Source: an uncultured Candidatus Saccharibacteria bacterium
GTDB lineage: Bacteria; Patescibacteriota; Minisyncoccia; Phycocordibacterales; UBA918
DNA length: 64,000 nt
Assembly (NCBI GenBank): GCA_964350735.1
Contig: CAYGKO010000001.1
Location: forward strand, 310,578 to 374,577
Direction: 5' to 3'
Positions 16,266 through 39,703 of this stretch are shown piece by piece (within the stretch, counting starts at the first letter, position 1; each line of letters begins with the position of its first letter). The position numbers and the translations under genes are program-made. The notes under the pieces are model-generated. The model was given only the letters and a program-made list of their open reading frames with translations, searched no databases and had not been told where the DNA came from.

Positions 16266-16400
16266 TCGAACCCCCCTTAGGTTGGTGTACGATTCGGGAG
16301 TCCGAATCTGATGCATTTGTATCATGTCTGAATCAGAAAGCAATAAATTCTTTTTTATACTCTTACAATATGCTATTCTAGCTGCCACAGAGTTACAGAT

Positions 16401-16485
16401 GGAGACGTGTCAGAGTGGTCTATCGTGCTTCCTTGCTAAGGAAGTGGGGTTTACGCCCCCGGAGGTTCGAATCCTCTCGTCTCCG
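16401..16485 (+). tRNA. tRNA-Ser(GCU), class II with long variable arm; CCA not encoded
   Basis: Acceptor GGAGACG/CGTCTCC, anticodon arm CTTCC-TTGCTAA-GGAAG, variable arm TGGGGTTTACGCCCCC, T arm GGAGG-TTCGAAT-CCTCT. Confidence 0.85.
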
Positions 16486-16497
16486 CCCGTATAAAAT

Positions 16498-16522
16498 ACC
16501 GCCCTCAAGGCGGTTATTTTAT
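16498..16522 (+). terminator. Rho-independent terminator after tRNA-Ser
   Basis: accgccctcaaggcggt + tatttt. Confidence 0.6.
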
Positions 16523-16526
16523 TGGG

Positions 16527-16650
16527 CGAAGACGAAGTAACAGTCCGGGGGACTGTTACGCGAGGATTCGAAAAGCTTTTGAGCTAGATTATGAGCAAAG
16601 CGAAATAATCTAGCCAAAAGGTATACTGCTCGTGTAACGAGAGAATCCTC
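16527..16650 (+). repeat. Structured repeat unit, copy 1. The second copy is at 48917-49026.
   Basis: It shares gtaacagtccgggggactgttacg(c/t)g(a/g)ggattcgaaaag and tatactgctcgtgta(a/g)cgagag with copy 2. The middle hairpin differs in sequence but keeps the same structure. Confidence 0.6.
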
Positions 16651-16717
16651 TCTGTGCTACCCCTTCCTTTTATTCTATTTTGACTTCACTAATTTTACGT
16701 CTATAATGCATCGCACT

Positions 16718-16852
16718 GGAGAGTTGGCTGAGTGGATGAATTGAGACCTGCGTCTCAATTCATCCGGTCCCAATCAAGATTGGGAAGCACGATATGAGCG
16801 TAAGCGAATCAGTGCTAGGAGGACGACTTGTCGGACACTCAACCAACTCTCC
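16718..16852 (+). other. Long stem-loop element built from a duplicated tRNA 5' half and its reverse complement, enclosing two internal hairpins
   Basis: ggagagttggctgagtgg (16718-16735) is identical to the 5' end of the downstream tRNA and pairs with actcaaccaactctcc (16837-16852). Internal hairpins lie at 16735-16764 and 16768-16785. Confidence 0.5.
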
Positions 16853-16864
16853 GTCGGTACGAAG

Positions 16865-16951
16865 TAACAGGGAGAGTTGGCTGAGTGGTCGAAAGCAGCA
16901 GTTTACTAAACTGCCGAGCCCTTACAGGCTCCAAGGGTTCGAATCCCTTAC
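16865..16951 (+). tRNA. Class-II (Ser-type) tRNA with the unusual anticodon loop TTACTAA (anticodon ACU by standard numbering). This tRNA is the integration target of the downstream mobile region.
   Basis: Acceptor GGAGAGT/ACTCTCC, D arm GCT-GAGTGGTCGAA-AGC, anticodon arm GCAGT-TTACTAA-ACTGC, long variable arm GAGCC-CTTACA-GGCTC, T arm AAGGG-TTCGAAT-CCCTT. Its 3' end is repeated at 49027. Confidence 0.6.
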
Positions 16952-16979
16952 TCTCCGCCGTCTAGAGCTAGCACGAGAC
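16938..16979 (+). repeat. attL-like direct repeat: tRNA 3' end plus a gcacgagacactat core. Its partner is at 49027-49068.
   Basis: tcccttactctccgccgtctagagctagcacgagacactat matches tcccttactctccgccgtttagagctagcacgagacattat at the far end of the accessory region with two mismatches. Confidence 0.65.
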
Positions 16980-17071
16980 ACTATCGTTCTAGCTTAACAA
17001 AAGCACCTGAATGGGTGTTTTTGTGCCTTGGGCAAATTAATCTATTTTAGAGATGTTTTATTACAAGCATT

Positions 17072-17602: not shown

Positions 17603-18361
17603 ATGGAAGAAAATTATAACAAAAACCAACCTAATCAATACCTAATCCCTTTGGCAATTGTAATTGCCGGGGCCTTTGTAGCAGGGGCACTCTACTTTAG
17701 TAATAGTGGAGCTACCGCTAATGCTCCAGTGGCAATTACGGATACTAATCAGCCAGTTGCAGCTGTTCCCGAACCAACTGGTTCAACCGACGCTGTTCGG
17801 CCAGTGACCAGCGAAGATCACATTAAAGGAAATCCCAATGCACCAATTAAAATCGTTGAATATTCAGACTTTGAGTGTCCATTCTGTAAGCGATTTCACG
17901 ACACTATGAACGAAGTGATGGATAAGTACGGGGATTCAGGCGAAGTTGCTTGGGTGTTTAGGCAATTCCCATTAGAACAATTACATCCAGTGAAAGCTCA
18001 ACGTGCCGCAGTTGCCACTGAGTGTGCCGCAGAGCAAGGAGGAAATGATGCTTTTTGGGCTATAGCCGACGGTTATTTTGCTGACCCTTCAACCGGGAAT
18101 AATCGAACGAACCAAGACGTGTTAATTCCGGAATTAGCAGCTGCAGCTGGATTGGATGCAGATCGTTTCAACGAATGTCTGGAGAGTGGAAAGTATGATG
18201 AGCATATACAAGCTGATATAGCGAACGCAGTTGAAACTGGCGGTCGAGGGACCCCATGGAGCGTCATGATTGGTCCAGATGGCAAAACTTATCCAATCAA
18301 TGGTGCCCAGCCACTGGCAGCAATTGAACAGTTAATTTCAATTGCTACGGATAATCAATAA
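17603..18361 (+). CDS. DsbA-like thiol:disulfide oxidoreductase (thioredoxin fold)
   Basis: N-terminal TM anchor and a CPFC active site (SDFECPFCKRFH). Confidence 0.75.
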   Translation: MEENYNKNQPNQYLIPLAIVIAGAFVAGALYFSNSGATANAPVAITDTNQPVAAVPEPTGSTDAVRPVTSEDHIKGNPNAPIKIVEYSDFECPFCKRFHDTMNEVMDKYGDSGEVAWVFRQFPLEQLHPVKAQRAAVATECAAEQGGNDAFWAIADGYFADPSTGNNRTNQDVLIPELAAAAGLDADRFNECLESGKYDEHIQADIANAVETGGRGTPWSVMIGPDGKTYPINGAQPLAAIEQLISIATDNQ

Positions 18362-18366
18362 CTACC

Positions 18367-18915
18367 ATGTACCGCAACGCACTTCAGTTAGTTTTTGTTC
18401 GTCCATTATACTGCTTGCTATTTCTAGCTGTAAGTTTTGTTGTTTTGTCGATTGCAATTCTATTGCCACACATTGGACTGATAAAAACTCTATGGCAGTA
18501 CGAATCTGTGACTGTAATTGAAATTGGACTACTTGTATTGAATCTCTATGGTTCACTCGGAACCAACTTCACTGTTCTCTCAGCCACATACACGGTACTC
18601 ATTGCGGTCTTGTTTGGTTTGCAAATAACCCTACTTACGCACTACATCAGAAGTGTGCGAAGCAAAGCAACCAACCTAGCAAACGTCGGGGCTAGCGGTA
18701 TTGGCGGACTCGTCAGTGGCTTTTTCGGCATTGGTTGTGCTGCCTGCGGAACTTTCTTATTGTCATCAATTCTTGCCTTGTTTGGAGCTGGAGGTGTACT
18801 GGCATGGTTGCCATTTGGCGGTGAGGAGTTCGGGTTACTTGGCGTCGGTTTATTGGTATATGCAAACCATCTCCTTATGAAGAAAATAAACGCACCACTA
18901 GTGTGTGCATCTTAA
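18367..18915 (+). CDS. Hypothetical membrane protein with a Gly-rich GCAACG segment
   Basis: Hydrophobic 182-aa ORF. Its function is not recognisable. Confidence 0.35.
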   Translation: MYRNALQLVFVRPLYCLLFLAVSFVVLSIAILLPHIGLIKTLWQYESVTVIEIGLLVLNLYGSLGTNFTVLSATYTVLIAVLFGLQITLLTHYIRSVRSKATNLANVGASGIGGLVSGFFGIGCAACGTFLLSSILALFGAGGVLAWLPFGGEEFGLLGVGLLVYANHLLMKKINAPLVCAS

Positions 18916-19480
18916 TCAACATTTATCCTTAATTAAAATATCTAACATGAAACTAGCACTTATTATTATAGGCCTATCAATCCTCCTTCTCGTCGGTGGT
19001 TCATGGTGGTCTACTAGCTCACAACAAAAAGCCTACGAACAAGAAATTGTCGGTATCACTTCAACTATCGTGACCGACCGTAGTCATGTGCAAACTGAGG
19101 TTGACTACAAGGACGCTCCACCAGTTGGCGGAAACCATCACCCAGTTTGGTTGAGTTGTAATGGTGATATCTATGATGAACCAGTTGTAGATGAAAATGC
19201 AGTCCATTCACTTGAGCATGGTGCTGTCTGGATTACATACCAGCCCAACTTACCAGTTGCAGATATAGAAACACTGGAGAAAAAAGTCGCTGGCTATTCC
19301 TTTATTAGCCCCTATCCAGAACAAGAGTCTCCGATCATGCTGACCGCTTGGGGTGTACAACTTCCACTTGATTCAGCTGATGATGAACGGGTAGACCAGT
19401 TCCTAGCCAAGTTCCGACAAGGTCCACAAACACCTGAACCAGGAGCTACCTGTAACGCTATTCCTGGTGGCATGCAATAA
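18905..19480 (+). CDS. DUF3105-like secreted/membrane-anchored protein. The start may be the internal ATG near 18947.
   Basis: GGNHHPVW...EHGAVWITY pattern with an N-terminal TM segment. Confidence 0.5.
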   Translation: MHLNQHLSLIKISNMKLALIIIGLSILLLVGGSWWSTSSQQKAYEQEIVGITSTIVTDRSHVQTEVDYKDAPPVGGNHHPVWLSCNGDIYDEPVVDENAVHSLEHGAVWITYQPNLPVADIETLEKKVAGYSFISPYPEQESPIMLTAWGVQLPLDSADDERVDQFLAKFRQGPQTPEPGATCNAIPGGMQ

Positions 19481-19482
19481 AT

Positions 19483-20106
19483 ATGAGTTACAAAATCATC
19501 AAAAAACAACTTCTGGCTTTGATGCTAGGAGTTGTGGTAGGAGTCAGTATGTTTCTGTTTGGACTGAACACGAATCTATCGAATAGTCCTAACGAAGCAG
19601 AGATTGGATTTGCTCAAGACATGAGCGTCCATCACCAGCAAGCAATTGAAATGTCATTCCTCGTCAGAGAACGCACTGACAGACAAGACATTCGAGGGTT
19701 TGCTTTTGACATCATTAACACCCAAGCCAATCAGCGTGGCATGATGCTGGGTTGGTTAGACTTATGGGAAAAACCCCTTACTACTACAAAAAAACCGATG
19801 ATGTGGATGGCCGATAGTATGTCTTCAATGAATCACAGTCAGATGAATGATTCGTTCACTTCAGGAGCATACATGCCTGGCATGGCTACCAAAGCTGAAG
19901 TGGATCAGTTAGTGACACTAGAGGACAAAGCGGCTGAAAAGTTGTTTCTAGAACTCATGATTCGTCACCATCAAGGCGGCGTCATGATGGCAGAAGGTGT
20001 TATTGAGCGTAGCGATACTGAAACCGTGACCCGCTTAGCTCAAACCATGGTTAATGGACAGCAAGCTGAAATTGATTATATGAACGAATTGTTAGAACAA
20101 TATTAA
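19483..20106 (+). CDS. DUF305 family protein (copper/metal-resistance associated)
   Basis: Two His-rich helical repeats, MSVHHQQAIEMS and MIRHHQGGVMMA. Confidence 0.65.
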   Translation: MSYKIIKKQLLALMLGVVVGVSMFLFGLNTNLSNSPNEAEIGFAQDMSVHHQQAIEMSFLVRERTDRQDIRGFAFDIINTQANQRGMMLGWLDLWEKPLTTTKKPMMWMADSMSSMNHSQMNDSFTSGAYMPGMATKAEVDQLVTLEDKAAEKLFLELMIRHHQGGVMMAEGVIERSDTETVTRLAQTMVNGQQAEIDYMNELLEQY

Positions 20107-20116
20107 TTACAATACT

Positions 20117-20776
20117 ATGAAAGAAGTACAAACAAACGAAGAGCCTATTAAACATAGTGACGGAAAAGACCAGCCTTGGCCACCGCGAGCCCAGCAAAAA
20201 CCACTGCTGATTTACGGCGCATTTGCCATTGTTATAGTTTTGGTGATAGGAGTAACTTTGTATACACAAGGTTTAGTCACTGCCGCTAAAGTAAATGGTC
20301 AGTCTATCAGTCGATTAAGTGTCGTTGGTGAGCTGGAAGAACAGGCTGGTGCGGCAGTGCTCGATTCGATGATTTCAGATATTCTGATTGAACAAGCTGC
20401 AACTGAGGCAGGTGTGACGGTGACTGACGATGATGTCGCAACAGAGATTGCGGCTATCGAATCACAGGTTACTGCTCAAGGAGGAACGCTGGAAGAAGTG
20501 TTAGCACAGCAAGGACTAGACAGAGAAAGTCTCGCGGGGCAAATTCGAACGCAAAAAATGCTCGAGTCACTTTTGTCTTCAGATATCGAAGTGACTGAAG
20601 CCGACATCGACGCTTTTTTGGAAGCTAATGGACCAGTACCCGAAGGTCAAGAAGAGGCGGCACGAGCGCAGGTTGCAGAACAGCTTAGAGGGCAAAAGTT
20701 TAGTACAGCAGCGCAAAGCTACGTTACTGGGTTGCGTACGCAGGCTAACATTCAGTATTTCGTTGATTATGAATAG
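20117..20776 (+). CDS. SurA-N-terminal-domain-like periplasmic chaperone (PpiD/SurA family, no obvious PPIase domain)
   Basis: N-terminal TM followed by a helical chaperone-like domain. Confidence 0.4.
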   Translation: MKEVQTNEEPIKHSDGKDQPWPPRAQQKPLLIYGAFAIVIVLVIGVTLYTQGLVTAAKVNGQSISRLSVVGELEEQAGAAVLDSMISDILIEQAATEAGVTVTDDDVATEIAAIESQVTAQGGTLEEVLAQQGLDRESLAGQIRTQKMLESLLSSDIEVTEADIDAFLEANGPVPEGQEEAARAQVAEQLRGQKFSTAAQSYVTGLRTQANIQYFVDYE

Positions 20777-22034
20777 TAGTATGAAATACATAATTTTTAG
20801 CTTCGTTTCTCTTATTCTCGTCGGCGGTGTATTTATAACACTGCACAACTCGGCAGAAACGACTTTCACCTACACTCGTGACAACTCTGAACGTACAACT
20901 GAAGTGAACGTTCAAATAGATGAGCCTTTAGAACAAACCCCTGTTGCTGTTGTTGTACCAACGACGGAAGTGACAGAGATTGAGATTCAACCTGGAGACA
21001 CATTCTCAACCATCATGGAAGAAGTAGCGGTTACCACCGAAGATCAAGATTCCATTCTGACGGCTGTTCAAGATGTGTACGACTTCACTAAACTACAAGC
21101 TGGAAAACTCATACATGTCGTATTTGCTCAAGATGCCCTCGCGTCAGTTGATTACGATCTGAACGATGACAAGAAAATTGTCATCGAAAATGTTGACGGT
21201 CAGTTTATCGCTAAAGAAGAAGCAGTTGAGTATGACGTTACTGAAGTAGTAAGGAGTGCAACAATTGAGTCTTCACTGTTTTATGATGGTGCAAGTGCTG
21301 GGTTGTCGGACAAGACTTTGGTTGAACTAGCTGAAATTTTTCAGTGGGATATAGACTTCAACACTGACATTCAGATTGATGACTCGTTTGTTGTTTTGTA
21401 TGAAGAACGAAAAACAATAGATGGAGTAGAAGCTAGTGCAGGAAAAATCCTTGCGGCTCAGTTCACTAATCAAGGTGAAATGTATGAGGCGTATTACTTT
21501 GAAACATCGAGTAGCACAGGTGGCTACTACGCTGCAAATGGTGAAAGTGTTGAACGTCAGTTCCTAAGCTCACCAATTGGTGTGGGGTATGTTAGTTCTG
21601 GCTTTAGTTATAGTCGACTGAATCCAATTACTAAACGTGTAACTCCGCACCGAGCAATCGACTATGCCGCTCCACACGGTACCCCAATCGTTGCTATTGC
21701 AGATGGAGAGGTGACATTGTCTGGCAGCAGGGGTCCGCTTGGTATTGCGATTGATATCGAGCATGGACAGTATATGAGTCAGTATGCTCACATGTCTCGT
21801 ATTGCCTCTGAAGTGAAGAAAAATCCAGAAGTGAAACAAGGACAAGTCATTGGCTATGTTGGTTCAACTGGTCAATCTACTGGTCCTCATTTGCACTACA
21901 CTCTCTTCAAAGATGGTACTCCTATCAATCCATCTGATGTGGATGTGTCAGTCAGTGAATCGTTGACTGACGTTGAGTTGGACGACTTTCAGACTATCGT
22001 AGAACAATATAGCGTTCAATTGGATGTAGATTAA
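20769..22034 (+). CDS. M23-family metallopeptidase (peptidoglycan endopeptidase), membrane anchored
   Basis: HxxxD and HxH M23 motifs (HRAIDYAAPHGTPI..., GPHLHYTLF). The ATG overlaps the upstream stop (ATGAATAG). Confidence 0.75.
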   Translation: MNSSMKYIIFSFVSLILVGGVFITLHNSAETTFTYTRDNSERTTEVNVQIDEPLEQTPVAVVVPTTEVTEIEIQPGDTFSTIMEEVAVTTEDQDSILTAVQDVYDFTKLQAGKLIHVVFAQDALASVDYDLNDDKKIVIENVDGQFIAKEEAVEYDVTEVVRSATIESSLFYDGASAGLSDKTLVELAEIFQWDIDFNTDIQIDDSFVVLYEERKTIDGVEASAGKILAAQFTNQGEMYEAYYFETSSSTGGYYAANGESVERQFLSSPIGVGYVSSGFSYSRLNPITKRVTPHRAIDYAAPHGTPIVAIADGEVTLSGSRGPLGIAIDIEHGQYMSQYAHMSRIASEVKKNPEVKQGQVIGYVGSTGQSTGPHLHYTLFKDGTPINPSDVDVSVSESLTDVELDDFQTIVEQYSVQLDVD

Positions 22035-22048
22035 AACAATAATTAAAT

Positions 22049-24004
22049 ATGACTGAAAAACACAATAAAAAAGCATCTGTCTGTGATGATTGTGTGGCAG
22101 GAGAAGGCGCAACATCAGCTACAGGTATTCAAGCTGTTTTCTCTCGTACTGGCGCACTTAAAATGCTTACGCCTATTTCAGGCATGTTGCTTGCAGTTGG
22201 CTTTCTAGGTTCATTTTCGTTACCCCAAGAAGGATGGAGTAATCTTTTTTACACACTATCCCTTCTGACTGGCTCCGTCTTTGTCCTACGAAGCGCCATT
22301 AATGGACTCATAAAACAGAGATTCTTAAATATTAGTTTCTTGGTAGTGATTGCCTCTATAGGGGCAATCTATATTGGTGAGTATGGTGAAGCGGCTGCAG
22401 TAGTTTTCCTCTTCTCATTAGCTGAATGGTTTGAGGGTTTTGGAGTTGAGCGGTCGCGTCGAGCCGTTGCATCACTTTTAGAAAAGTCTCCAAAAGTAGC
22501 AAAACTTCTTGATGGCAGCACTGTACCGGTTGAGGACGTTACTGTAGGTGCCATTGTGGTGGTGCGTCCAGGAGAGATGGTTCCGCTTGATGGGGTCGTG
22601 AAGAAAGGTGAATCAGCGGTAGATGAGGCGGCAATTACTGGAGAATCAATACCGGTTGATAAACTACCTGAGGACACCGTGTTTGCGGGCACACTGAACG
22701 TACAAGGGTACTTAGAAGTTAGGGTTGAAAAAGAAAGTGAAGACTCTACGTTTTCCCGTATCATCGCCCTGATCGAAGAAGCGCAGGCATCGCGTGCACC
22801 AACCCAAGCCTTTATTGATAGATTCGCTCGGTACTATACGCCTTTAGTTGTGGTGATTTCAGTTTTGGTGGCAGCTATTCCAACGCTCGTTTTTGGCTTA
22901 CCGTTTGATGACTGGCTCTATCGAGCGATTACTCTTTTGGTGATTGCTTGTCCGTGTGCCTTGGTTATTGCAACCCCAGTAGCAATAGCCTCATCTATTG
23001 GTGGAGCGTCACGCAATGGCATCTTGATAAAAGGTGGAAAGTATCTTGAGAAATTGGCAAAAGTAAAAGCGATTGCGTTTGATAAGACACGTACACTCAC
23101 ATATGGACGACATACAGTTACTGACGTTCTGGTGTTTGGCTCACATACAGAAGAGGAAGTGATCGCTGATGCCGCTGGCATTGAAGCGTTTTCTTCACAT
23201 CCCTTGGCTGAGGCGATTATCGAATACGCCAAAGAGAAGAAAATTACACCGCATAGCATGGACTCCTATCAGAATGTTGCTGGCAAAGGAGGTAAGGCTC
23301 GGTGTTTAGTGTGCAAAGCCAGTAGTCATATTGGCAATGTAAAACTAATGAATGAAAACGGTATTGACACCAAGGTCTTTTTGGCTGATGTGGAGCGACT
23401 CGAAAGAGAAGGTAAAACAGTTGTGTTAGTGGCAGAAGAAAAGGAACTGATTGGTGCCTTGGCTATTTCTGATGCAGTCCGCAGCGAAGCCAAAGACGTG
23501 GTGGTGGAACTAAGGAATACTGGAGTGGAAAGTGTCATGCTCACCGGCGATAATGCACACAGTGCGGCGTACATTGCTGGATTAGTTGGCATTAATGATG
23601 TCCATGCGTCACTCTTGCCTGAAGATAAGGTAGTTAAGGTAAAAGAACTTAAAGCCAAATATGGTCCGACTGCCATGATTGGTGACGGAGTGAACGACGC
23701 GCCGTCTTTGGTCACATCTGACGTCGGGTTTGCCATTGGCGCCGGAGGAACGGATGCTGCAATTGAGTCTTCTGACATAACACTTCTGTCAGGTGATTTG
23801 AGAACCGTACCCCAGTCAATTCGACTGGCAAAAGCAACCATGCGGACTATCCATGTCAACGTGGCTTTGGCACTTGGCATCAAAGTGCTGTTCCTGATTT
23901 TGGTGCCATTTGGACTGACTAATCTTGTGTTTGCCATTGCGGCCGATTCAGGTATGGCGATCGTGGTTATCCTCAATAGTCTGCGATTATTTTCTATTAA
24001 GTAA
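22049..24004 (+). CDS. P1B-type heavy-metal translocating ATPase (CopA/ZntA-like) with an atypical DKTRT phosphorylation motif
   Basis: CPC ion-transduction motif (ACPCALVIATP), SSHPLAEAI, MLTGDN, GDGVNDAPSL. The invariant DKTGT reads DKTRT (gat aag aca cgt aca). Confidence 0.8.
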   Translation: MTEKHNKKASVCDDCVAGEGATSATGIQAVFSRTGALKMLTPISGMLLAVGFLGSFSLPQEGWSNLFYTLSLLTGSVFVLRSAINGLIKQRFLNISFLVVIASIGAIYIGEYGEAAAVVFLFSLAEWFEGFGVERSRRAVASLLEKSPKVAKLLDGSTVPVEDVTVGAIVVVRPGEMVPLDGVVKKGESAVDEAAITGESIPVDKLPEDTVFAGTLNVQGYLEVRVEKESEDSTFSRIIALIEEAQASRAPTQAFIDRFARYYTPLVVVISVLVAAIPTLVFGLPFDDWLYRAITLLVIACPCALVIATPVAIASSIGGASRNGILIKGGKYLEKLAKVKAIAFDKTRTLTYGRHTVTDVLVFGSHTEEEVIADAAGIEAFSSHPLAEAIIEYAKEKKITPHSMDSYQNVAGKGGKARCLVCKASSHIGNVKLMNENGIDTKVFLADVERLEREGKTVVLVAEEKELIGALAISDAVRSEAKDVVVELRNTGVESVMLTGDNAHSAAYIAGLVGINDVHASLLPEDKVVKVKELKAKYGPTAMIGDGVNDAPSLVTSDVGFAIGAGGTDAAIESSDITLLSGDLRTVPQSIRLAKATMRTIHVNVALALGIKVLFLILVPFGLTNLVFAIAADSGMAIVVILNSLRLFSIK

Positions 24005-24015
24005 TAAAGTCTGAT

Positions 24016-24306
24016 ATGAAAAAAGAAGAATTTGAACAAACACTACAAAATGAACCCAACGTCCTTATTCTAGATATACGGCAAGCTGAAGAGGTCTGGA
24101 AAGATAGTAGTATTCCCAATACAAAACACATGCCAATGGGTAAAGTATTCACCGAAGCGGTAAAAGACAACTTACCTAAAGACAAACGCATTATTGTATT
24201 TTGTAGAACTGGGGTACGGGCGGGTATTGTTGCTCGCGAACTAAGTAGTCGTGGATATGATATCGAGGGCTTAGAAGGCGGTCTAGAGGCTCTGAAGAGT
24301 GAATAA
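24016..24306 (+). CDS. Rhodanese-domain protein
   Basis: Active-site loop CRTGVRAG. Confidence 0.75.
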   Translation: MKKEEFEQTLQNEPNVLILDIRQAEEVWKDSSIPNTKHMPMGKVFTEAVKDNLPKDKRIIVFCRTGVRAGIVARELSSRGYDIEGLEGGLEALKSE

Positions 24307-24312
24307 TCAGCT

Positions 24313-24801
24313 ATGTTAGATCTCGTATCAATTTTCTTAGCAACTAAGCTGCATATCGTCGTTATTTTGATAGCGTTGGTAGCTATTGCATTCGCTTCAG
24401 ACTTTCAGCGCTTACGGACACTTGTGCTGGCATCCATTGCTCTGCCGTTAGTATTTTTAACTAGTCGAATTGCTTCACTTTTCTTTGAAAACCCTCGGCC
24501 ATTTCTGGAGCACGATTTTGTACCACTGATAACGCACGCGGCTGACAATGGATTCCCTTCAGATCATGCCTTATTGGTATTTGCGGTTGCTAGTATCGTA
24601 TTCACTTTTAACAAACAGGTTGGAATAAGCTTGTTTGTCTTAGCTGTTTTGGTTGGAGTTGGTCGGGTACTGGTTGGAGTGCATCACGTCATTGATATTG
24701 TGGGAAGTTTTATAATAGCTGCGGTAATTACTTATATGATTGTAGCTATACTACAAATGTTCTTAAATCAAACAAGCCCAAATGATACAAGGATTTTATA
24801 A
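24313..24801 (+). CDS. PAP2-family membrane phosphatase (undecaprenyl-diphosphatase-like)
   Basis: PSDHA and GVHHVID PAP2 motifs. Confidence 0.7.
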   Translation: MLDLVSIFLATKLHIVVILIALVAIAFASDFQRLRTLVLASIALPLVFLTSRIASLFFENPRPFLEHDFVPLITHAADNGFPSDHALLVFAVASIVFTFNKQVGISLFVLAVLVGVGRVLVGVHHVIDIVGSFIIAAVITYMIVAILQMFLNQTSPNDTRIL

Positions 24802-24833
24802 ACTGCTTACGTTTGGTCAAATAGTTATATATT

Positions 24834-26312
24834 ATGACGTTGAGTAATCATTGGTTAATACAATCTACTTTAGTCGGTTTGTTGCTTGGGGCAGGATTCG
24901 TGATTCCATCGTTATGGTTTCTAAGTATCGTTGGGGTAGCTTGGCTAATTCATCAGATGATCAAAGATGGTGCGCTGGTGACTGTAGGCTTTGTTTGGGT
25001 AGCTTGGTTAGTAAAGTATCTCTTGGCCTTGGGCTGGTTCTGGTCTGTATATCCAATTTATTGGCTAGAGACATCAGTTATTACAGAGGCACTAATTATT
25101 GGTTTTTATTGGGTCACGGCATCTCTGTGGCTGTCTGTTGGAGGTTTAGTATTTTATTTCATTTTAAAAAATCTAAAGCAGTTTCTCTCAAGAAAAATTG
25201 TTTTGGGAATAGCTCCGTTCATCTGGCTTCTGTCAGAACTAATAGGGGCATTATTTTTCTCAATTGCAACGATTGGTCCAGGAGGTACAGTTACAACAAA
25301 ATTTAGTTTCGGCTTTATCGGGTATCATCTAGCTCAGCATGACTTGTTGATTCAATTTGCAGTAGTTGCTGGCGTGTATGGTTTAACACTGCTTTTGCTT
25401 GGGCTTTCAGTGATTTTTATATATGGATGGCAAGCTAATTACAGAAAAACTGTTTACGGAGTATTTTTCGTACTACTTGCTTCAAGTTTTATTGGATTAC
25501 CACAAACAACGACTTTTCAAAAAGAAGATCAGATTAGTATTGTGATGGTTGATACCTGGTACCCAAACAATGGATGGGCGTCTGATGAAGATCTTAAAGA
25601 AAAACGAGATCAAAACAGAGCTGCGCTGGATGTTGCCCTTACCCAGAAGGCTGATTACATTATCTTTCCAGAAGATAGTCAGGTATTTGATCAGACTGTA
25701 CCTAGTAGTACATTGCGGGCAATGCTACAGTTTGTATACGGCAGGTCTAGCTCGGTGATAATTGATAGTAGTAGCGTGCCAGTTGAAGGCGGACTCGCTG
25801 TACAAGCAATGGTATTTGATCCTAATTCAGCTGGACTGGAGCAAACACAGAAACAATATCTTGTACCCCAAGGAGAGTACATACCAACACTATATGCTGG
25901 TTTGATGAGGTTGTTTGGGTTTGGTGAGACGGTTGATTTTTTAGAGATGCGTATGAGATATCGGGTTGGCGATATTACTTCAACTAATAGTAATTCATTG
26001 CTTCCACCAGTATTATTTTGTTTCGAAAGTGTCGCACCAAACAGCGTCCGTTCGCTGTTGCAACAACGATCAGAACCGGTTCCGTTTGTGGCTCATATTG
26101 TCTCGCACAGTTGGTTTAATGAACCTGAGATATTGTGGCAGCAATTAGAATCGATGCTGCGTATACAAGCGATTTGGAATGATACACACATAGCCGTAGC
26201 TGGGAATCACTCTTTGGGATACGTTGTTGACCCCAAAGGCTTTATAATTGAGCCTGATGTCATTGATTCAGCTGACTATTGGCAAGTTGGTGTAGTGACT
26301 ATTCCAAAATAA
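24834..26312 (+). CDS. Apolipoprotein N-acyltransferase (Lnt)-like: N-terminal multi-TM domain plus C-terminal carbon-nitrogen hydrolase domain
   Basis: CN-hydrolase catalytic segments YIIFPE...K...FCFESV. Confidence 0.55.
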   Translation: MTLSNHWLIQSTLVGLLLGAGFVIPSLWFLSIVGVAWLIHQMIKDGALVTVGFVWVAWLVKYLLALGWFWSVYPIYWLETSVITEALIIGFYWVTASLWLSVGGLVFYFILKNLKQFLSRKIVLGIAPFIWLLSELIGALFFSIATIGPGGTVTTKFSFGFIGYHLAQHDLLIQFAVVAGVYGLTLLLLGLSVIFIYGWQANYRKTVYGVFFVLLASSFIGLPQTTTFQKEDQISIVMVDTWYPNNGWASDEDLKEKRDQNRAALDVALTQKADYIIFPEDSQVFDQTVPSSTLRAMLQFVYGRSSSVIIDSSSVPVEGGLAVQAMVFDPNSAGLEQTQKQYLVPQGEYIPTLYAGLMRLFGFGETVDFLEMRMRYRVGDITSTNSNSLLPPVLFCFESVAPNSVRSLLQQRSEPVPFVAHIVSHSWFNEPEILWQQLESMLRIQAIWNDTHIAVAGNHSLGYVVDPKGFIIEPDVIDSADYWQVGVVTIPK

Positions 26313-26480
26313 ATGATTATGCGTACTGCATCACAAAAAAAGAAACTTCCAGGTGTGAAATCAGCTTATTTGTGTAATGGAACTTTAAATGGTACAAATA
26401 GTTTATTGCAAGTTTCCTCCGTACTCTTTACCTCAAACACTCTCTCCGAGGTACTTAAAAATTTAATATAAAAATATAAT

Positions 26481-27299
26481 ATGATCGAATGGTTTTTAGC
26501 TTTGGGTCCTGTGACTCAAGCGCTCTTGGCAGGTTGTTTTACCTGGTTTATTACTGCACTTGGTGCTTCAGGAGTAATTTTTTTTAAAGAAATTAACAAA
26601 AAAGTTTTAAACGGAATGCTGGCTTTTGCAGCAGGAGTAATGATTGCGGCCAGTTTCTGGTCGTTACTTTCTCCAGCAATTGAATTATCAGAAGGCGGTG
26701 CGCTACCTAAATGGCTACCTCCATTAATAGGATTCTTACTCGGTGCTGGTACCTTGTGGCTAATGGATAAGGTTATACCGCACCTACATCTCGGTGCTCC
26801 GATGTCTGAAGTTGAAGGAGTGAAAACCTCTTGGCATCGAAGTGTGCTTCTAGTGTCATCAATTACGCTTCATAACATCCCTGAAGGATTAGCGATTGGT
26901 GTTGCATTCGGGGCAGCGGCAGCGGGTATTGAGGGAGCAACTGTTGCAGCCGCTATTGCCTTGGCTGTTGGTATTGGAATTCAGAATTTTCCAGAAGGGG
27001 CAGCCGTTTCAGTTCCATTAAGACGAGAAGGATTCACTCGTTTCAAAGCATTTCTGTACGGTCAGTCATCAGGAATGGTTGAACCAGTTTCAGCAGTGTT
27101 AGGTGCTGCATTAGTTTTGATGTTTGCACCAGTTTTGCCGTATGCTTTATCTTTCGCAGCAGGAGCAATGATGTTTGTAGTTGTAGAAGAGCTGATTCCT
27201 GAATCACAACGTGGTGGTCCAGGTATGGCAGATTTTGCCACAGTCGGAGCGATGATCGGTTTTGCAGTTATGATGTCGTTAGACGTAGCTTTAGGTTAA
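26481..27299 (+). CDS. ZIP-family metal transporter (ZupT-like)
   Basis: [10 protein letters not shown] signature in eight TM helices. Confidence 0.85.
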
Positions 27300-27307
27300 A
27301 ATATAAT

Positions 27308-28204
27308 ATGTCAGGACATCATCATCACGGACACCACCACCAAGGTGACAGAAAGGGCAATATTTTGTTTGCTGCTATCTTAAATTTTACTTTTGTCATT
27401 ATTGAAGTAATCGGAGGTATTCTTACCAATAGTGTCGCCATTCTATCCGATGCTTTGCATGACTTCGGAGACAGTATAGCGCTCTTTTCTGCGTACTTCG
27501 CAGAAAAACAAGCTGAACGTTCACCTGATAAGAAGCGTACGTTTGGATATGCTCGCATATCTGTTTTCTCAGCCCTGTTCAGTGCAGTGATTTTAATTGT
27601 TGGTTCAATCTTCATTCTGAGTGAAGCAGTGCAGCGACTATTTAGCCCAGAGCCAGTGCATGCCACAGGAATGATTTTGTTAGCAGTGTTTGGAGTGAGC
27701 GTAAATCTAGTGGCATTTTTCAGATTGAGTAAGGGCTTGAGTGCTAACGAAAAAGTATTGTCGTGGCACTTACTTGAAGACGTAATTGGTTGGGCTGCTG
27801 TACTGGTTGGAGCAATCATCATTTACTTCACCGATTTCTATATCATTGATCCGATATTGACGGTTGGATACACCCTCTTCATTCTTTGGGGTGTTTGGGG
27901 AGGTCTTAAGAATGTTATGAATATCTTAATGCAGGGTACACCAGCGGAAGTTGATATTGAAAAAATAAAACAAGAAATCTTGAATATCGACGAGGTACAG
28001 GCAGTGCACGACATTCATGTTTGGTCGCTTGATGGAGAGCACAATGTTTTAACTTGTCATGTAGTTCTTAAGAACTGTACTGTCGCTGAGACTAAGCGGG
28101 TAAAAGAGAATATCGAAGAACATATGAAAGCATTTCATATCAACCACACGACAATCGAATGTGAAGTTGACGGAGAGTGCGTTGGAAAAGATTGTATTAA
28201 TTAA
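27308..28204 (+). CDS. Cation diffusion facilitator (CzcD-like Zn/Co/Cd efflux)
   Basis: His-rich N-terminus (HHHGHHHQGD), six TM helices with the HDFGDS motif, and a C-terminal cytoplasmic domain. Confidence 0.85.
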   Translation: MSGHHHHGHHHQGDRKGNILFAAILNFTFVIIEVIGGILTNSVAILSDALHDFGDSIALFSAYFAEKQAERSPDKKRTFGYARISVFSALFSAVILIVGSIFILSEAVQRLFSPEPVHATGMILLAVFGVSVNLVAFFRLSKGLSANEKVLSWHLLEDVIGWAAVLVGAIIIYFTDFYIIDPILTVGYTLFILWGVWGGLKNVMNILMQGTPAEVDIEKIKQEILNIDEVQAVHDIHVWSLDGEHNVLTCHVVLKNCTVAETKRVKENIEEHMKAFHINHTTIECEVDGECVGKDCIN

Positions 28205-28653
28205 TCTAATTCTTTAATCAACTCTCTCATCTCAGCAATCTCACGTTCTTGTGCGGCGATAATTTCGTCAGCTAAGGCGCGGACTCTTGGGTCTTCGAGC
28301 TGTGCACGTTCACTAGTAAGAATGGCAATGGAATGATGTGGAATCATCGCTTCAAGATAATCGACGTCGTCTACTAGCACTTGACTCCTAACTAGAAAGA
28401 GAGATAAGGCAAATAGAGCAACGCTACCACCAACGATATAACGATTCGTGGCTTTGTCGTTATACATATGTCGCATGAACCACAACATGACCAGTGCCAT
28501 GGCGGATGTCATTATCAAGTTCATATAAAGTCGCGTCTCACTAAAAAAGACATGGTCAAAAGCGTATGTATGTAAGTACATGAGGATATACATAAGTACC
28601 GATGATGTTGCAATCATGGCAAAGAATGTTTGGTATGAAGTTTTGTTTTGCAT
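28201..28653 (-). CDS. DUF305-like membrane protein
   Basis: MIPHHSIAI...REIAEMRE pattern. It is the second DUF305 in the island. Confidence 0.55.
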   Translation of the reverse strand: MQNKTSYQTFFAMIATSSVLMYILMYLHTYAFDHVFFSETRLYMNLIMTSAMALVMLWFMRHMYNDKATNRYIVGGSVALFALSLFLVRSQVLVDDVDYLEAMIPHHSIAILTSERAQLEDPRVRALADEIIAAQEREIAEMRELIKELD

Positions 28654-28700
28654 ATTTAACTATTTACACTGACACCCCCCTAGGGTATCATACTCAAACT

Positions 28701-28970
28701 ATGAAATCAGCTGTATCAAACAAAATCATCCGCCAACTTAGTGTCATTGAAGGTCAAGTTAGAGGTCTTAAGAAGATGGTTGAAGACGACAAGTACTGCA
28801 TTGATGTCATTACCCAAGCGTCAGCCATCCGTAATTCTCTTAGTTCAGTCGAAGAGAAAATGCTTGAAAACCACCTTAATACCTGTGCTGTTACTCAAAT
28901 GAAAGGCAAAAAACAAGATCAGGCAGTGAGTGAGATTTTGAAGGTTTATAAACTAGCAAAGCGAAAATAA
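28701..28970 (+). CDS. CsoR/RcnR-family metal-sensing transcriptional repressor
   Basis: IEGQVRGLKKMVEDDKYCIDVITQ...HLNTC conserved helix with Cys/His ligands. The start is set to the ATG at 28701. Confidence 0.8.
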   Translation: MKSAVSNKIIRQLSVIEGQVRGLKKMVEDDKYCIDVITQASAIRNSLSSVEEKMLENHLNTCAVTQMKGKKQDQAVSEILKVYKLAKRK

Positions 28971-28971
28971 T

Positions 28972-29718
28972 ATGGTTGATACAAAACAAGCAGTAGTGTA
29001 TCGAATGGTAATGCCGGGCCACACCTGTCCTTATGGTGTTAAGTCGCTATACCTACTAAGTAAGCATGGCTATGAGACAGAAGATAATCATCTAACTACT
29101 CGCGAAGAAACTGACGCTTTTAAAGCGAAGCACAGCGTAGAAACCACCCCACAAACATTTGTTAATGGTGAACGTATAGGTGGATATACCGAGTTACGCA
29201 AGCATTTTGGCTACTCTGTTTTAGAACCAGGAGACACCACCTATAAACCAGTGGTTGCTATCTTTTCTGTTGCGGCATTACTAGCTGTGGCGGTCGGCTT
29301 TCTTACTGGCTGGCAGTATGGCTATCTCATGACAATTCCTCACTTCATATCAATTGCTATGGTGCTGTTGGCACTCATGAAACTACGAGATGTGGAAGGA
29401 TTTTCTACAATGTTCCTTAACTATGACGTGCTGGCTAAGCGTTGGGTGTCGTATGGCTATATCTACCCCTACGCAGAACTCACGGCTGGCTTACTTATGT
29501 TTGCTGGCATACTATCGGCCGTTTCAATCCCGCTAGCATTGTTTATTGGTGGTATCGGCGCTTGGTCTGTATTCAAAGCTGTATATATAGAAAAACGTGA
29601 ACTTAAATGTGCGTGTGTTGGTGGCGACACAAACGTACCGCTTGGGTTTGTATCACTAACGGAAAACTTGATGATGATTGGAATGGCAGTGTGGATGCTA
29701 ACGATGTTACTTTTTTAG
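28972..29718 (+). CDS. Glutaredoxin-like domain fused to a MauE/DoxX-like membrane domain
   Basis: N-terminal thioredoxin-fold GHTCPYG, then four TM helices. Confidence 0.55.
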   Translation: MVDTKQAVVYRMVMPGHTCPYGVKSLYLLSKHGYETEDNHLTTREETDAFKAKHSVETTPQTFVNGERIGGYTELRKHFGYSVLEPGDTTYKPVVAIFSVAALLAVAVGFLTGWQYGYLMTIPHFISIAMVLLALMKLRDVEGFSTMFLNYDVLAKRWVSYGYIYPYAELTAGLLMFAGILSAVSIPLALFIGGIGAWSVFKAVYIEKRELKCACVGGDTNVPLGFVSLTENLMMIGMAVWMLTMLLF

Positions 29719-29725
29719 ATTAAAC

Positions 29726-30115
29726 ATGAAATTAGTTGGGCACATTATTTTAATAGCAGTACTCGGAAGTATGTTCCTGAGTCTCTTTCATATGTCTACC
29801 GGAATGGACATGACTGGCGGAATGACAGATTGTCCGTTTATGGAACGTGGTGAGGTGATTTGCCCCATGAATCTAGCTGACCATATCGGAGCGTGGAAAG
29901 CCGCCTTTGTATCAGTTACTCCAACCATTGTCACGCTGCTAGTAATTGCTGGAACAGTTGCATTTATAGCTTCAACTGCGCCCTTCTTCTTTTCCCCAAA
30001 AAGAAAACCGATACCGATCCGGTTCAATGCACTTCGTGTGCGAACGTATTCATTTTCATATAGACCATTGCAAGAACTATTTTCTAGCGGAATTTTACAC
30101 CCCAAACTATTTTAG
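29726..30115 (+). CDS. Small Cys/Met-motif membrane protein, paralogue of 17072-17524
   Basis: FLSLFHMS...DCPFMERGEVICPM and the identical C-terminal RPLQELFSSGILHPK. The 3' DNA is also conserved with 17470-17520. Confidence 0.5.
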   Translation: MKLVGHIILIAVLGSMFLSLFHMSTGMDMTGGMTDCPFMERGEVICPMNLADHIGAWKAAFVSVTPTIVTLLVIAGTVAFIASTAPFFFSPKRKPIPIRFNALRVRTYSFSYRPLQELFSSGILHPKLF

Positions 30116-30170
30116 CTATGTACCCATGCGATCTTAATCGCAATATTACTAGCCTAGAAAAGTAAATAAC

Positions 30171-30827
30171 ATGCAAAAAATATACTTTATTGGTGCAAGC
30201 CTCTTTGCACCAGCCATTTCACTAGCTCATTCAGACGAACTGCACACAGCGTGGTACCAAGAACCGATGACGGTTGTCGGCATACTCGTAGCAGTTCTAT
30301 CTCTTGGTGCGCTTAGTTATGGACTCATTACCAAGCAAAAGAACTTCATGACGTTGCCAGTCATAGCGTTGGTAGCGGTAGCTGTCACAGGTTTAGTTTC
30401 CTTTGGTCAAAACAACCTCACCTACGAGCCAGACTTAGTGGTAACCAACTTTGGTGCTGGTCAGTCAGTCACCTTATACAAGAGCCCGAATTGTGGCTGT
30501 TGTAGTGGTCACGCAGCGGCACTCGAAGCAGCTGGCTTTGATGTCACGATTGAAGAAACAAATGAGCTTAACACTATTAAACAATCAAACAATATTCCTC
30601 TGGGTGGAGAGAGCTGTCACACGTCTATCATTGGTGATTACGTAGTAGAAGGTCATGTGCCACTAGAAGCCATTGAAAAACTACTGACTGAACAACCTGA
30701 CATTGCTGGTATTGGATTACCGGGAATGCCAATTGGCACACCAGGTATGCCAGGACCGAAGACTGCTCCTTATGAGGTTTATCAACTATCAAGCGATGGT
30801 GACATGTCACCATACATAACAATCTAA
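30171..30827 (+). CDS. DUF411 (CopG-like) periplasmic metal-binding protein
   Basis: SPNCGCCSGHAAALEAAGFDV motif with an N-terminal signal/TM segment. Confidence 0.65.
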   Translation: MQKIYFIGASLFAPAISLAHSDELHTAWYQEPMTVVGILVAVLSLGALSYGLITKQKNFMTLPVIALVAVAVTGLVSFGQNNLTYEPDLVVTNFGAGQSVTLYKSPNCGCCSGHAAALEAAGFDVTIEETNELNTIKQSNNIPLGGESCHTSIIGDYVVEGHVPLEAIEKLLTEQPDIAGIGLPGMPIGTPGMPGPKTAPYEVYQLSSDGDMSPYITI

Positions 30828-30830
30828 TAT

Positions 30831-32552: not shown

Positions 32553-32572
32553 TCACTCTGAGAGATTGTAGA

Positions 32573-32604
32573 AGAAAACACCTGATTTTCAGGTGTTTTC
32601 TTAT
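32573..32604 (+). terminator. Rho-independent terminator after the multicopper oxidase gene
   Basis: gaaaacacctgattttcaggtgttttcttatt. Confidence 0.7.
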
Positions 32605-32629
32605 TGTGTGTAAGTGGTATAAATAGTCT

Positions 32630-33262
32630 ATGTCAAATAGATGGGTAGAAAGTGTTAAAAAGAATCTCTTACCTCTGAGTAAAGAAAAAACCGACCTCAA
32701 CCAAGCATTGAGCGAGTGGTTTTATACTGGAGACACCTATGACCTTACTCGCCCTGAGGAAGATTGTGAATTGTGTGATCATCCTGGAATTAGATTTCAA
32801 TTTGAAATAAAAAATCAGCATACTAAAGAAGTTCTGCTAATTGGATCTGAATGTATATTACGATTCTCAATTTCAGCAATTGATGATGAAGGTAATGTAC
32901 TTGATCAAGTTTCCACTACCAAAAAAGTGCACCAAGATAGACGTAAACTTATATCTAACGCTAGAACAAAAAGAGTTATCACTAGCTTAGTAGATTTGTC
33001 ACAAAAAGATAAAGAGTTTGATGACATAAATAATTCAATTGAGTACTTTCAAGAGAGAGGAGCCTTTTCACCTAGACACCTGCTATTTCTATTATGGAGA
33101 ATGAAAAAGAGTGGCGTTTCATTTAACAAAACAGATTTTAAAATGACAATTAGAAGAAATAGAGAGAAAGATCAATTGTTAGCTATGAAGGACTGGGAAG
33201 TAAGAAAAATAAAGCCAGCCATGTCCGCCGCTCAACAAAAATGGTATCAAGAAAATTCATAG
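32630..33262 (+). CDS. Hypothetical protein with a possible Cys4 zinc-binding motif, adjacent to the recombinase
   Basis: CELCDH...GSECI. No other recognisable domain. Confidence 0.35.
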   Translation: MSNRWVESVKKNLLPLSKEKTDLNQALSEWFYTGDTYDLTRPEEDCELCDHPGIRFQFEIKNQHTKEVLLIGSECILRFSISAIDDEGNVLDQVSTTKKVHQDRRKLISNARTKRVITSLVDLSQKDKEFDDINNSIEYFQERGAFSPRHLLFLLWRMKKSGVSFNKTDFKMTIRRNREKDQLLAMKDWEVRKIKPAMSAAQQKWYQENS

Positions 33263-34555: not shown

Positions 34556-34740
34556 GTATATATTAATGACAGACCAGTTTTTATTGCATAGCTATGCAAG
34601 CTAAATAAAACGTCACATACTCGCTTAGCAAAACTACCATTTAGCGATACAATCCCATTAATAGTAGTTTTCTGCTATTATGTTCAACACAACTGAATAC
34701 AAGGCCTAACCCTTTAGTTTCCTAGAGATATGGCCGACCA

Positions 34741-34881
34741 AACGCGATCAACGTAAAAACCCCGACATCAGGGGCGTTGATCGCGTTGCGTGGGGAAACT
34801 TGCGTAGGAACCTTCGGGTTCACCTTGGTGTTCGGGTTTTTGTGTACCTGAACATTTAATTACTCATAAAACGCGATCAAC
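34741..34881. promoter_or_regulatory. Three copies of AACGCGATCAAC(G) (two forming a 13-bp-stem cruciform) upstream of the Ltp-like gene: candidate operator, origin or att site
   Basis: aacgcgatcaacg (34741-34753) pairs with cgttgatcgcgtt (34775-34787), with a ccccgacatcagggg sub-hairpin in the loop. A third copy lies at 34868-34881, 5 bp before the ATG at 34886. Confidence 0.4.
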
Positions 34882-38900: not shown

Positions 38901-39065
38901 TTTATTAAGTCTTACTTAAATAAAATGTGTAGATATAGAAAAAGCCTACGTCCACACACGAAATAAAGAGCGGTTAAGCTATCTATTTCTTGCGCGGAGT
39001 AGGCACGGTGGGTGAGACTATGCGTTACTCTTCTTTTTACTACGCAATATAGTATTTATATTAAA

Positions 39066-39479: not shown

Positions 39480-39703
39480 AACTACTTTCGCTTTCGGGTA
39501 CTTGGTCGCTGTGAAAGGGCACTACCAGCTGCAGTCTTTGATTTGCTTGAGGTACGTCCGTCACGGAGTACACTACTCGACGCTTTGGCGGCTCGTGAAC
39601 TCGTTACTTTGCTTCGGTTGCTTTTGGGCATGATGAAGTTTTTTAGTGGATAATGACTCTATTGTATTCCTGCATTTTGGAAGTGTCAAGAGTGTAAAAT
39701 AAG

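Follow-up and report, generated by a model that had tools for sequence, protein, structure and literature searches.

The window, by which we mean the whole stretch of 64,000 nucleotides, contains two copies of a folded unit of ~120 nt in the vicinity of serine tRNA genes, and the locus raises the question whether this unit is an RNA, an arm of an attachment site, or a repeat that resides behind tRNA genes. The original prediction placed both copies upstream of duplicated tRNA ends, which has been confirmed for copy 2, whereas copy 1 is the trailer of the tRNA-Ser(GCU) gene. The parts said to be shared are indeed present. Both copies carry the hairpin P1 (gtaacagtcc-ggg-ggactgttac), the block ..ggattcgaaaag (with a 1-nt indel between the copies) and the block tatactgctcgtgtaRcgagag, and a terminator-like hairpin precedes each of them. 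The middle hairpins (P3) differ in sequence and keep their position and length, and the flanked segments of copies 1 and 2 agree at 77% mean column identity. The general plan of the unit comprises P1, a three-way junction with conserved joints, the variable P3, and P4, which consists of 5 bp and a GUA loop. In and around copy 1, the following features have been located.

16400-16488, + strand: tRNA-Ser(GCU), detected by ARAGORN and the Rfam tRNA model
16498-16514, + strand: bidirectional terminator-like hairpin between tRNA-Ser(GCU) and copy 1
16524-16534, + strand: 5′ strand of copy 1, gggcgaagacg
16537-16559, + strand: P1 of copy 1, 10 bp with a GGG loop
16562-16650, + strand: three-way junction of copy 1
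16562-16569 with 16643-16650, + strand: closing stem GAGGATTC/GAATCCTC, 8 bp, T-stem-like
Before P3, + strand: joint GAAAAG
16576-16620, + strand: P3 of copy 1
16621-16628, + strand: joint GTATACTG
16629-16641, + strand: P4 of copy 1, 5 bp with a GUA loop
16651-16663, + strand: decayed acceptor 3′ strand tctgtgctacccc, compared with tcgtctccgcccg of the tRNA, as read from the sequence

Copy 1 ends with GAATCCTCTC, the T-arm 3′ half of tRNA-Ser(GCU), followed by the decayed acceptor strand, and consequently has no acceptor-like outer stem. Its 5′ strand is complementary at 10 of 11 positions to the acceptor 3′ strand and trailer of tRNA-Ser(GCU), and the latter two constitute the left arm of a long hairpin with this strand (-50.2 kcal/mol for the fold of 16477-16566). 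No promoter-like site has been found in the interval between tRNA-Ser(GCU) and copy 1. Copy 1 is a chromosomal, partly decayed trailer of tRNA-Ser(GCU) and not of tRNA-Ser(ACU). Copy 2, on the other hand, is an intact unit matched to tRNA-Ser(ACU) and is situated at the right end of a nested 32-kb island.

16871-16959, + strand: tRNA-Ser(ACU), with its 3′ end (16944-16959) repeated at the end of copy 2
48853-48879, + strand: pseudo tRNA 3′ end TTCGGATTTCGTCCCACACTGCCCGCA ahead of the terminator of copy 2
48889-48904, + strand: terminator-like hairpin ahead of copy 2
48917-49042, + strand: copy 2, intact
48917-48923, + strand: acceptor-like 5′ strand GGAGAGT
48927-48949, + strand: P1 of copy 2
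48952-48958, + strand: T-stem-like GGGATTC
48964-49000, + strand: P3 of copy 2
49001-49007, + strand: TATACTG
49008-49020, + strand: P4 of copy 2
49021-49026, + strand: AGAAAT
49027-49042, + strand: end of copy 2, TCCCTTACTCTCCGCC, identical to the 3′ end of tRNA-Ser(ACU)

The pseudo tRNA 3′ end block of 48853-48879 also precedes a unit in one of the related loci (L015). The tRNA-Ser(ACU) of the window is itself unusual, as it has an A at position 34 and adjoins the normal tRNA-Ser(GCU); it is also kept in L005, L010, L011, L019, and L065. Just upstream of this gene, a second tRNA-like structured RNA candidate has been noticed at 16680-16853 (-69 kcal/mol, z -6.9), which starts with the first 18 nt of tRNA-Ser(ACU) (GGAGAGTTGGCTGAGTGG), ends with CCAACTCTCC plus G, and has a near-consensus promoter ahead of it (TTGACT-16-TATAAT, 16680-16707). 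Homologues with a covarying first hairpin are located at L011 2934-3030 and L010 378-466 and are absent from L065, and a GAGCGUAAGCGAA motif in this structure resembles the P3 tips of the unit.

Searches for relatives have been based on sequence patterns and on a covariance model. A two-block DNA pattern has returned 19 contigs from metagenomes, and a looser pattern has returned 43 contigs from genomes, of which ~38 are true units, distributed over Saccharibacteria, Paceibacterota/Paceibacteria, Nomurabacteria, Vogelbacteria, Minisyncoccia, and Parcubacteria. Five genome matches (two in Clostridia and one each in Lachnospiraceae, an alphaproteobacterium and Neglectibacter) have been discarded as chance, since they have none of the other features of the unit. 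Every confirmed copy with a named source genome derives from Patescibacteria (CPR), to which the organism of the window therefore most probably belongs as well. The covariance model (R1), trained on 54 unit cores, has matched 72 copies, 69 of them distinct, across 53 sources. Applied to the 64-kb window, it has detected copy 1 and copy 2 alone (92.6 and 74.9 bits; E of 1e-20 and 2.6e-16), the following match having an E of 0.034. The comparison with Rfam by Infernal that had been proposed for both copies has given no tmRNA, tRNA-like or other family, with only noise over copy 1 and copy 2 and no family at E ≤ 10; the self-cleaving ribozyme and riboswitch models of Rfam 15 likewise have matched nothing over either copy at this limit. 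At the Rfam gathering score, 13 related loci contain tRNAs and LOOT only, and no RF00391. Exact 22-23-nt blocks of the unit have found no match among viral contigs, among which the looser pattern has yielded one provirus-like contig, L065. A genome scan with the 176-aa host protein adjoining tRNA-Ser(GCU) has found no match, and a search of the literature on CPR bacteria for a described motif like the unit has found none of relevance. Behind tRNA-Ser(GCU) in L011 (1440-1900), the units form a tandem array with a period of 127 nt, in which a truncated copy accompanies three full ones, and another array, with a period of 157 nt, lies behind tRNA-Gln in L021 (505-830); L053, a contig related to L011, has one unit copy fewer. 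The units thus make up a hitherto uncatalogued family of folded elements that is widespread in Patescibacteria, extends over several classes and is absent from Rfam. This wide spread, the many tRNA species involved and the assignment of copy 1 to tRNA-Ser(GCU) go beyond what had been predicted from the window.

The fold of the family is well reflected in the 69 distinct sequences, in which 95.5% of the cells have been found to be paired, compared with 74.6% in shuffles. In 15 of the 17 modelled pairs both sides have changed with pairing kept, and the covariation score of 0.559 compares with 0.166 for shuffled alignments and 0.09-0.14 with partners slid. As this alignment has been fitted to the model, P4 has been extracted separately by a plain regular expression, which has shown the GUA triloop to be invariant and to be enclosed by more than 25 different 5-bp stems of Watson-Crick pairs. 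P1 occurs as ~20 different, perfectly paired stems. The conserved joints of the junction (UUCGAAAAG, GGUAUACUG, and AGAAAU) have shown little variation, an apparent invariance that has to be read with the fact that two of the three joints were part of the search pattern. Near-invariant joints across Patescibacteria classes, together with covariation in all stems, point to purifying selection on a fold, and the original view of a functional RNA or structured arm, as opposed to a passive duplicate, has accordingly been borne out by the covariation among these homologues. The three-way junction occupies the position of the T loop. In most copies (type 1), P1 is inserted between the acceptor-like and the T-like parts, and in type 2 units P1 is absent and the helix is continuous over 12-19 bp.

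The fold is also specific for one strand. The tRNA-sense strand is the better folder in 63 of the 69 units (mean difference to the complement -4.0 kcal/mol, Wilcoxon p 1e-11) and contains 95 G-U pairs, compared with 49 on the complement; in P4 alone, 11 G-U stand against 3 A-C combinations. Compared with shuffles, copy 1 and copy 2 fold with z = -6.2 and -7.0, respectively. Several readings of the conserved parts have been discarded. The arrangement CUG-[P4]-AGAAA recalls a hammerhead, whose CUGANGA core has been found missing on inspection; an interpretation of P4 as an anticodon loop with GUA is incompatible with the flanking positions, which covary as a base pair (U-A 55, C-G 7, U-G 3); and TATACT has been dismissed as a -10 promoter box, as a -35 box at workable spacing is missing.

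The units are linked to tRNA genes. Wherever a tRNA gene is found at most 90 nt away (46 units), the unit lies downstream of it and on the same strand (46/46). The tRNAs ahead of units represent 14 anticodon types and comprise tRNA-Ser (GCU, ACU, GGA, UGA), Tyr, Gln, Pro, Val, Leu, Trp, Ile, Cys, and Lys (CUU, UUU). The 3′ end of the unit is a copy of the T-stem 3′ half, the acceptor 3′ strand and the discriminator of the tRNA, often with 2-4 trailer bases, and exact identity extends over 8-24 nt in nearly all tRNA-linked units (16 nt in copy 2, 10 nt in copy 1). Because the 5′ strand is complementary to the unit's own tRNA-end copy, the two ends of the unit pair into a helix resembling the acceptor and T stems of that tRNA as they stack on each other. 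The tRNA-like acceptor stem that had been proposed for copy 2 from its closure GGAGAGT/ACTCTCC has thereby turned out to be a property of the whole family, in which the closing helix copies the neighbouring tRNA. Since the 5′ strand complements the end of the tRNA as well, the tRNA 3′ strand, the spacer and the 5′ strand constitute one long hairpin at every locus. In copy 1, L027, L043, L060, L063, and L064, the acceptor 3′ strand within the unit has decayed or been cut short, and the 5′ strand still complements the upstream tRNA. In the chimeric unit of L024, the 5′ strand fits the upstream tRNA and the 3′ end is of another type, and L010 has tRNA-Ser(ACU) and the terminator and no unit.

The surroundings of the units vary. 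The interval between tRNA and unit is devoid of a terminator in L049, L050, L061, and behind the tRNA-Lys of L060, a locus with the order tRNA-Cys, unit, 11 nt, tRNA-Lys, unit. Paceibacteria and Nomurabacteria loci have housekeeping neighbours, e.g., ClpB, a DnaJ-domain protein, TypA/BipA, and NUDIX. Near-identical cores, P3 tip and P4 included, have been observed behind different tRNAs in the same or related genomes. These core subtypes (a Ser-GCU/Ser-ACU/Gln cluster, a Trp/Leu/Tyr/Ser cluster, and a Ser/Lys cluster) are also common to Saccharibacteria and Paceibacteria, which indicates that the family spreads or is homogenised and that the end strands are tRNA-specific. Gene conversion with the tRNA, template switching in a quasi-palindrome, and selection for pairing are candidate routes by which the end strands may have become so. 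Regarding their origin, the 5′ strand of the L046 unit, behind a tRNA-Leu with an unusual T loop, agrees less well with the 5′ strands of that tRNA than with the complement of its 3′ region; at G-U positions, which discriminate a copy of the tRNA 5′ strand from a complement of the 3′ strand, the picture has been mixed for tRNA-Tyr and tRNA-Trp loci inspected by eye. Reverse transcription of a mature tRNA or derivation from a primer-binding site has been discarded, as the copied end lacks CCA and contains genomic trailer bases (e.g., ..GCACAAA), and as no complement of CCA is present in the 5′ strand.

Our leading explanation, to which we assign about an even chance, is that the unit is an RtT-like RNA that would be co-transcribed with the tRNA and released by the tRNA-processing enzymes. 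Read-through transcription from the tRNA promoter is predicted to cover the unit, RNase P would cut on its 5′ side, and RNase Z together with the CCA-adding enzyme would finish its 3′ side; since its ends mimic a tRNA minihelix, the unit would be excised by the enzymes that mature tRNAs. The junction may then be the working part, binding a putative partner. Strand-specific folding, the G-U bias and the invariant orientation would support an RNA in the direction of the tRNA. The terminator-free lineages, the operon order of L060 and the lack of a promoter-like site before copy 1 are consistent with co-transcription, and the housekeeping neighbours in several lineages would fit an RNA of the host. 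Read-through would be needed where a terminator-like hairpin stands before the unit, as in both copies of the window and in many relatives. Several observations speak against this explanation. The decayed acceptor strand in a sizeable minority of units is not predicted by a strict minihelix requirement, near-identical cores behind different tRNAs suggest spread or gene conversion and could mean selfish DNA, and the G-U bias would equally fit a folded single DNA strand. A role as attachment arm and a selfish spread are not mutually exclusive with an RNA product.

The attachment-site question arises from the DNA between copy 2 and its tRNA, ~32 kb which have been inserted by large-serine-recombinase elements. 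Two such recombinases are encoded within 16960-49026, i.e., between the two tRNA-Ser(ACU) 3′-end repeats. The first of them (33263-34555) is accompanied by phage-like remnants and has a 92% identical relative in L012. The remaining features are as follows.

16960-16995: att-like site after tRNA-Ser(ACU), AGCTAGCACGAGACACTAT cgttctagct, left border, from the comparison with L012
42732-42821: left end of the inner element, with att-like GCACGAGACACTAT (42732-42745) and the hairpin GGTCAAG..CTTGACC
42799-42821: pseudo tRNA 3′ end GGTTCTAGCTCGAGACAGCCCGC at the left end of the inner element, overlapping the stop of the recombinase gene
42803-44275, - strand: large serine recombinase of the inner element (Resolvase, Recombinase, Zn_ribbon_recom)
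44358-45158, - strand: rolling-circle type replication protein (REP_ORF2-G2P) of the inner element
49043-49080: att-like palindrome after copy 2, AGCTAGCACGAGACATTAT gtttcgtgctgg, right border, with the shape of a terminator-like hairpin
49543-49756: decayed third att-arm module, with att-like GCTCGAGACACTAT, the GGTCAAG hairpin and a terminator (49700-49727)
49741-49756, + strand: truncated 5′ strand of a type 2 (hairpin-less) unit, GCGCGAGAGTAAGGGG; compare L004, L015, and L016

The motif GCACGAGACACTAT occurs at 16971, 42732, 49054, and 49543, and the attB has been reconstructed as ..AGCTAGCACGAGACACTAT GTTTCGTGCTGG... In the third module, the pseudo tRNA 3′ end is split by an insertion. 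L012 contains two occurrences of a ~290-nt module, composed of an att half-site, an arm, the GGTCAAG hairpin, a pseudo tRNA 3′ end and a terminator, followed by the unit, the tRNA-end copy and the palindrome AGCTAGCACGAGAC-ACTAT-GTTTCGTGCTAG; this layout recurs around the inner element of the window. The attB of the recombinases would be the terminator-like palindrome that directly follows the unit or tRNA, the elements would carry a unit in their attP arm, and the inner element probably spans ~42746-49067. The palindrome is located ~11 nt and the presumed crossover ~25 nt beyond the 3′ end of the unit, and the unit itself contains no imperfect ~30-50-bp att-core palindrome, as AGCTAGCACGAGAC-ACTAT-GTTTCGTGCTAG sits downstream. 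Copy 2 lies in the arm and adjoins the presumed crossover site, without being this site itself. Scans of the window and of neighbouring genes in related loci have found no tyrosine integrase, and this enzyme has been dismissed as the source of the direct repeat.

The remaining contents of the island are recorded here as observations in their own right. A metal-handling island directly follows the tRNA (17603-33262) and encodes a DsbA-like protein, DUF3105, DUF305 (twice), DUF411, a P-type ATPase, ZIP and cation-efflux transporters, and a multicopper oxidase. The phage-like remnants at 35641-41403 include terminase-like large and small subunits and a DNA methylase, and are followed by two paired genes, for Peptidase_S24 and a SMODS nucleotidyltransferase, which possibly form a defence module. 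The last gene product of the inner element, encoded directly ahead of copy 2 (47696-48787), measures 363 aa and contains an RNA polymerase alpha C-terminal domain. LOOT RNA (RF03000) has been detected at 34703-34822 of the window (72.9 bits) and at 4313-4434 of L065 (56.3 bits), in each case divergently oriented to a large serine recombinase gene (33263-34555 in the window, 4576-5877 in L065) and ~150 nt upstream of it. Its place beside a recombinase in both loci suggests that LOOT belongs to the control region of the recombinase or to the att region.

Based on this arrangement, the unit could be understood in general as the conserved att-site arm of integrative elements that target tRNA genes, with hairpins that bind protein or extrude as cruciforms and with chromosomal copies that are scars or solo att modules of past integrations, as had also been considered in the original prediction. 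Copy 2, which ends in a 51-nt direct repeat (D4) of the tRNA-Ser(ACU) 3′ end and flank with 88% identity and is separated from that tRNA by 32 kb with two serine recombinases, corresponds well to this description, as do the two modules of L012 and their counterpart at the inner element, the similar layouts of pseudo-3′-end plus unit in L008, L020, L032, and L058, the chimeric unit of L024 and the tandem arrays of L011 and L021. Partial tRNA repeats are moreover a hallmark of serial integration at tRNA genes (10.1101/2020.12.28.424599). Serine recombinases, however, use short palindromic sites, and the palindrome lies outside the unit; a tyrosine integrase is missing from the window and the scanned neighbours of related loci, and recombinase homologues have been found only in L012 and L065 among more than 55 loci. 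Freely covarying stems and a G-U bias on one strand are also unlike double-stranded protein-binding sites, and many units lie within tRNA operons or among housekeeping genes and not only at the borders of mobile DNA. The attachment-arm proposal has held in part for copy 2, which lies in the arm beside the att palindrome of a serine recombinase, and fails for the family as a whole, because most members reside behind tRNA genes among housekeeping genes; as a general explanation we judge it unlikely. A related possibility is that the unit acts as a folded single-stranded DNA site of a rolling-circle element, or as a single-strand origin, in which the closing helix would imitate the double-stranded end of the tRNA gene, as CTX phage does with dif. 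The inner element does encode a rolling-circle type replication protein, folding is strand-specific, and the target sequence appears in duplex form in the closing helix. Homologues of the replication protein have, however, been seen in the window's own element only, most units are chromosomal and free of mobile genes, and serine recombinases act on duplex DNA, with no tyrosine recombinase associated, so that we consider this possibility very improbable.

The distribution of the cores allows for another explanation, in which the unit is a selfish repeat behind tRNA genes, i.e., a small non-autonomous element or a concertedly evolving repeat with no host function, and its end strands are re-templated from the tRNA by template switching in the quasi-palindrome of tRNA 3′ end, terminator and 5′ strand. 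Core subtypes that are common to different tRNAs and to Saccharibacteria and Paceibacteria, P3 tip and P4 included, would be expected for such a repeat. The same applies to the long hairpin of tRNA 3′ strand, trailer and 5′ strand, which is always near-perfect, to L010 with its tRNA-Ser(ACU) and terminator and no unit, to the different copy numbers in the arrays of L011 and L053, and to the L046 tRNA-Leu, whose 3′ region, read as its complement, matches the 5′ strand of the unit better than the tRNA's 5′ strands do. Near-invariant joints combined with covarying stems nevertheless imply purifying selection on the fold, no transposase or other mobilising gene is associated, and template switching is itself only a putative origin of the end strands; we see a minor chance for an element devoid of host function. 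In a variant that we regard as more doubtful again, the unit would be a self-adapting element targeted to tRNAs, whose end strands are rewritten from the tRNA via the palindrome and which is carried in the attachment regions of serine recombinases. If this were true, the terminal helix would effectively be programmed by the neighbouring tRNA, elements would use the unit, e.g., for the rebuilding of a locus or the marking of a landing site, and a new coupling of a structured RNA or DNA module to tRNA genes would be at hand.

A fold with near-invariant joints across Patescibacteria classes that is not in Rfam represents a candidate new non-coding RNA in a large and little understood lineage. A terminal helix that tracks at least 14 anticodon types poses the question whether tRNA-like processing or recognition selects it or a templating mechanism produces it. 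In genome annotation, the units flag hot spots of tRNA-linked integration and account for the "partial tRNA" repeats of Patescibacteria genomes.

Among known systems, tRNA (RF00005) and the tRNA-like domain of tmRNA resemble the units in the stacking of an acceptor-like on a T-stem-like helix and in UUCGA, with which the junction begins in the manner of a T loop, whereas the units have no D arm, anticodon arm, tag reading frame or pseudoknots. Accordingly, they are undetected by tRNA and tmRNA models, and ARAGORN and Rfam have returned three tRNAs only and no tmRNA in the window. The tycheposons of Prochlorococcus are islands that arise from serial integration with partial-tRNA repeats (Hackl et al., 10.1101/2020.12.28.424599). 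They resemble the present island in the tRNA 3′-end repeat at the far border, in nested or serial elements, in the occurrence of some large serine recombinases and in remnants, and differ in that the repeat there is a bare tRNA fragment, whereas here a conserved, covarying fold of ~120 nt is found, also where no island is present. With regard to RNA processing, the units compare with the t-elements of plant mitochondria and the mascRNA of MALAT1, which are mimics of the acceptor and T arm without anticodon arm, and in which RNase P and RNase Z set the ends of an RNA. The processing mechanism considered for the units would be of this kind by analogy; t-elements and mascRNA are organellar or eukaryotic, unrelated in sequence, contain no copy of a neighbouring tRNA and have no conserved junction in the T loop.

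The closest known relative in architecture is the RtT RNA of E. coli (RF00391). At tyrT-tyrV, 178-nt repeats that all terminate with 19 nt from the 3′ end of tRNA-Tyr follow tyrV in 3.1 copies, and one more RtT copy, the fourth, is placed by Rfam in the interval from tyrT to tyrV; as a positive control, RF00391 has scored 133-138 bits on E. coli. Bosl and Kersten reportedly described in 1991 that processing of the tyrT transcript sets rtT RNA free, and to our knowledge its function is not clear, decades after its description. Both kinds of unit are placed directly behind a tRNA gene on the same strand, can form tandem repeats (E. coli; L011 and L021) and end in a copy of the tRNA 3′ end, which measures 19 nt in E. 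coli and 8-24 nt in Patescibacteria. The copied end in the latter is without CCA because the tRNA genes there do not encode CCA. In both, the closing helix consists of the tRNA-end copy and a complementary upstream strand; the RF00391 consensus has GGGGAAGGAU paired with the tRNA-Tyr-end copy, and copy 1 keeps only its 8 T-stem-like bp. Within the window, copy 1 has the RtT position behind tRNA-Ser(GCU), and copy 2 is parted from its tRNA by the inserted elements. The differences are equally clear, as RF00391 has no match in the window at E ≤ 10 and the model R1 has no match at the E. coli locus, from which it follows that the units are an independent family of the same kind and not members of RtT. 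The Patescibacteria core is another, smaller three-way junction, most copies have the extra hairpin P1, the units stand behind at least 14 anticodon types compared with one for RtT, and they also ride on serine-recombinase elements. The RtT RNA of E. coli thereby gains a distant architectural counterpart, and the shared design is open to comparative study.
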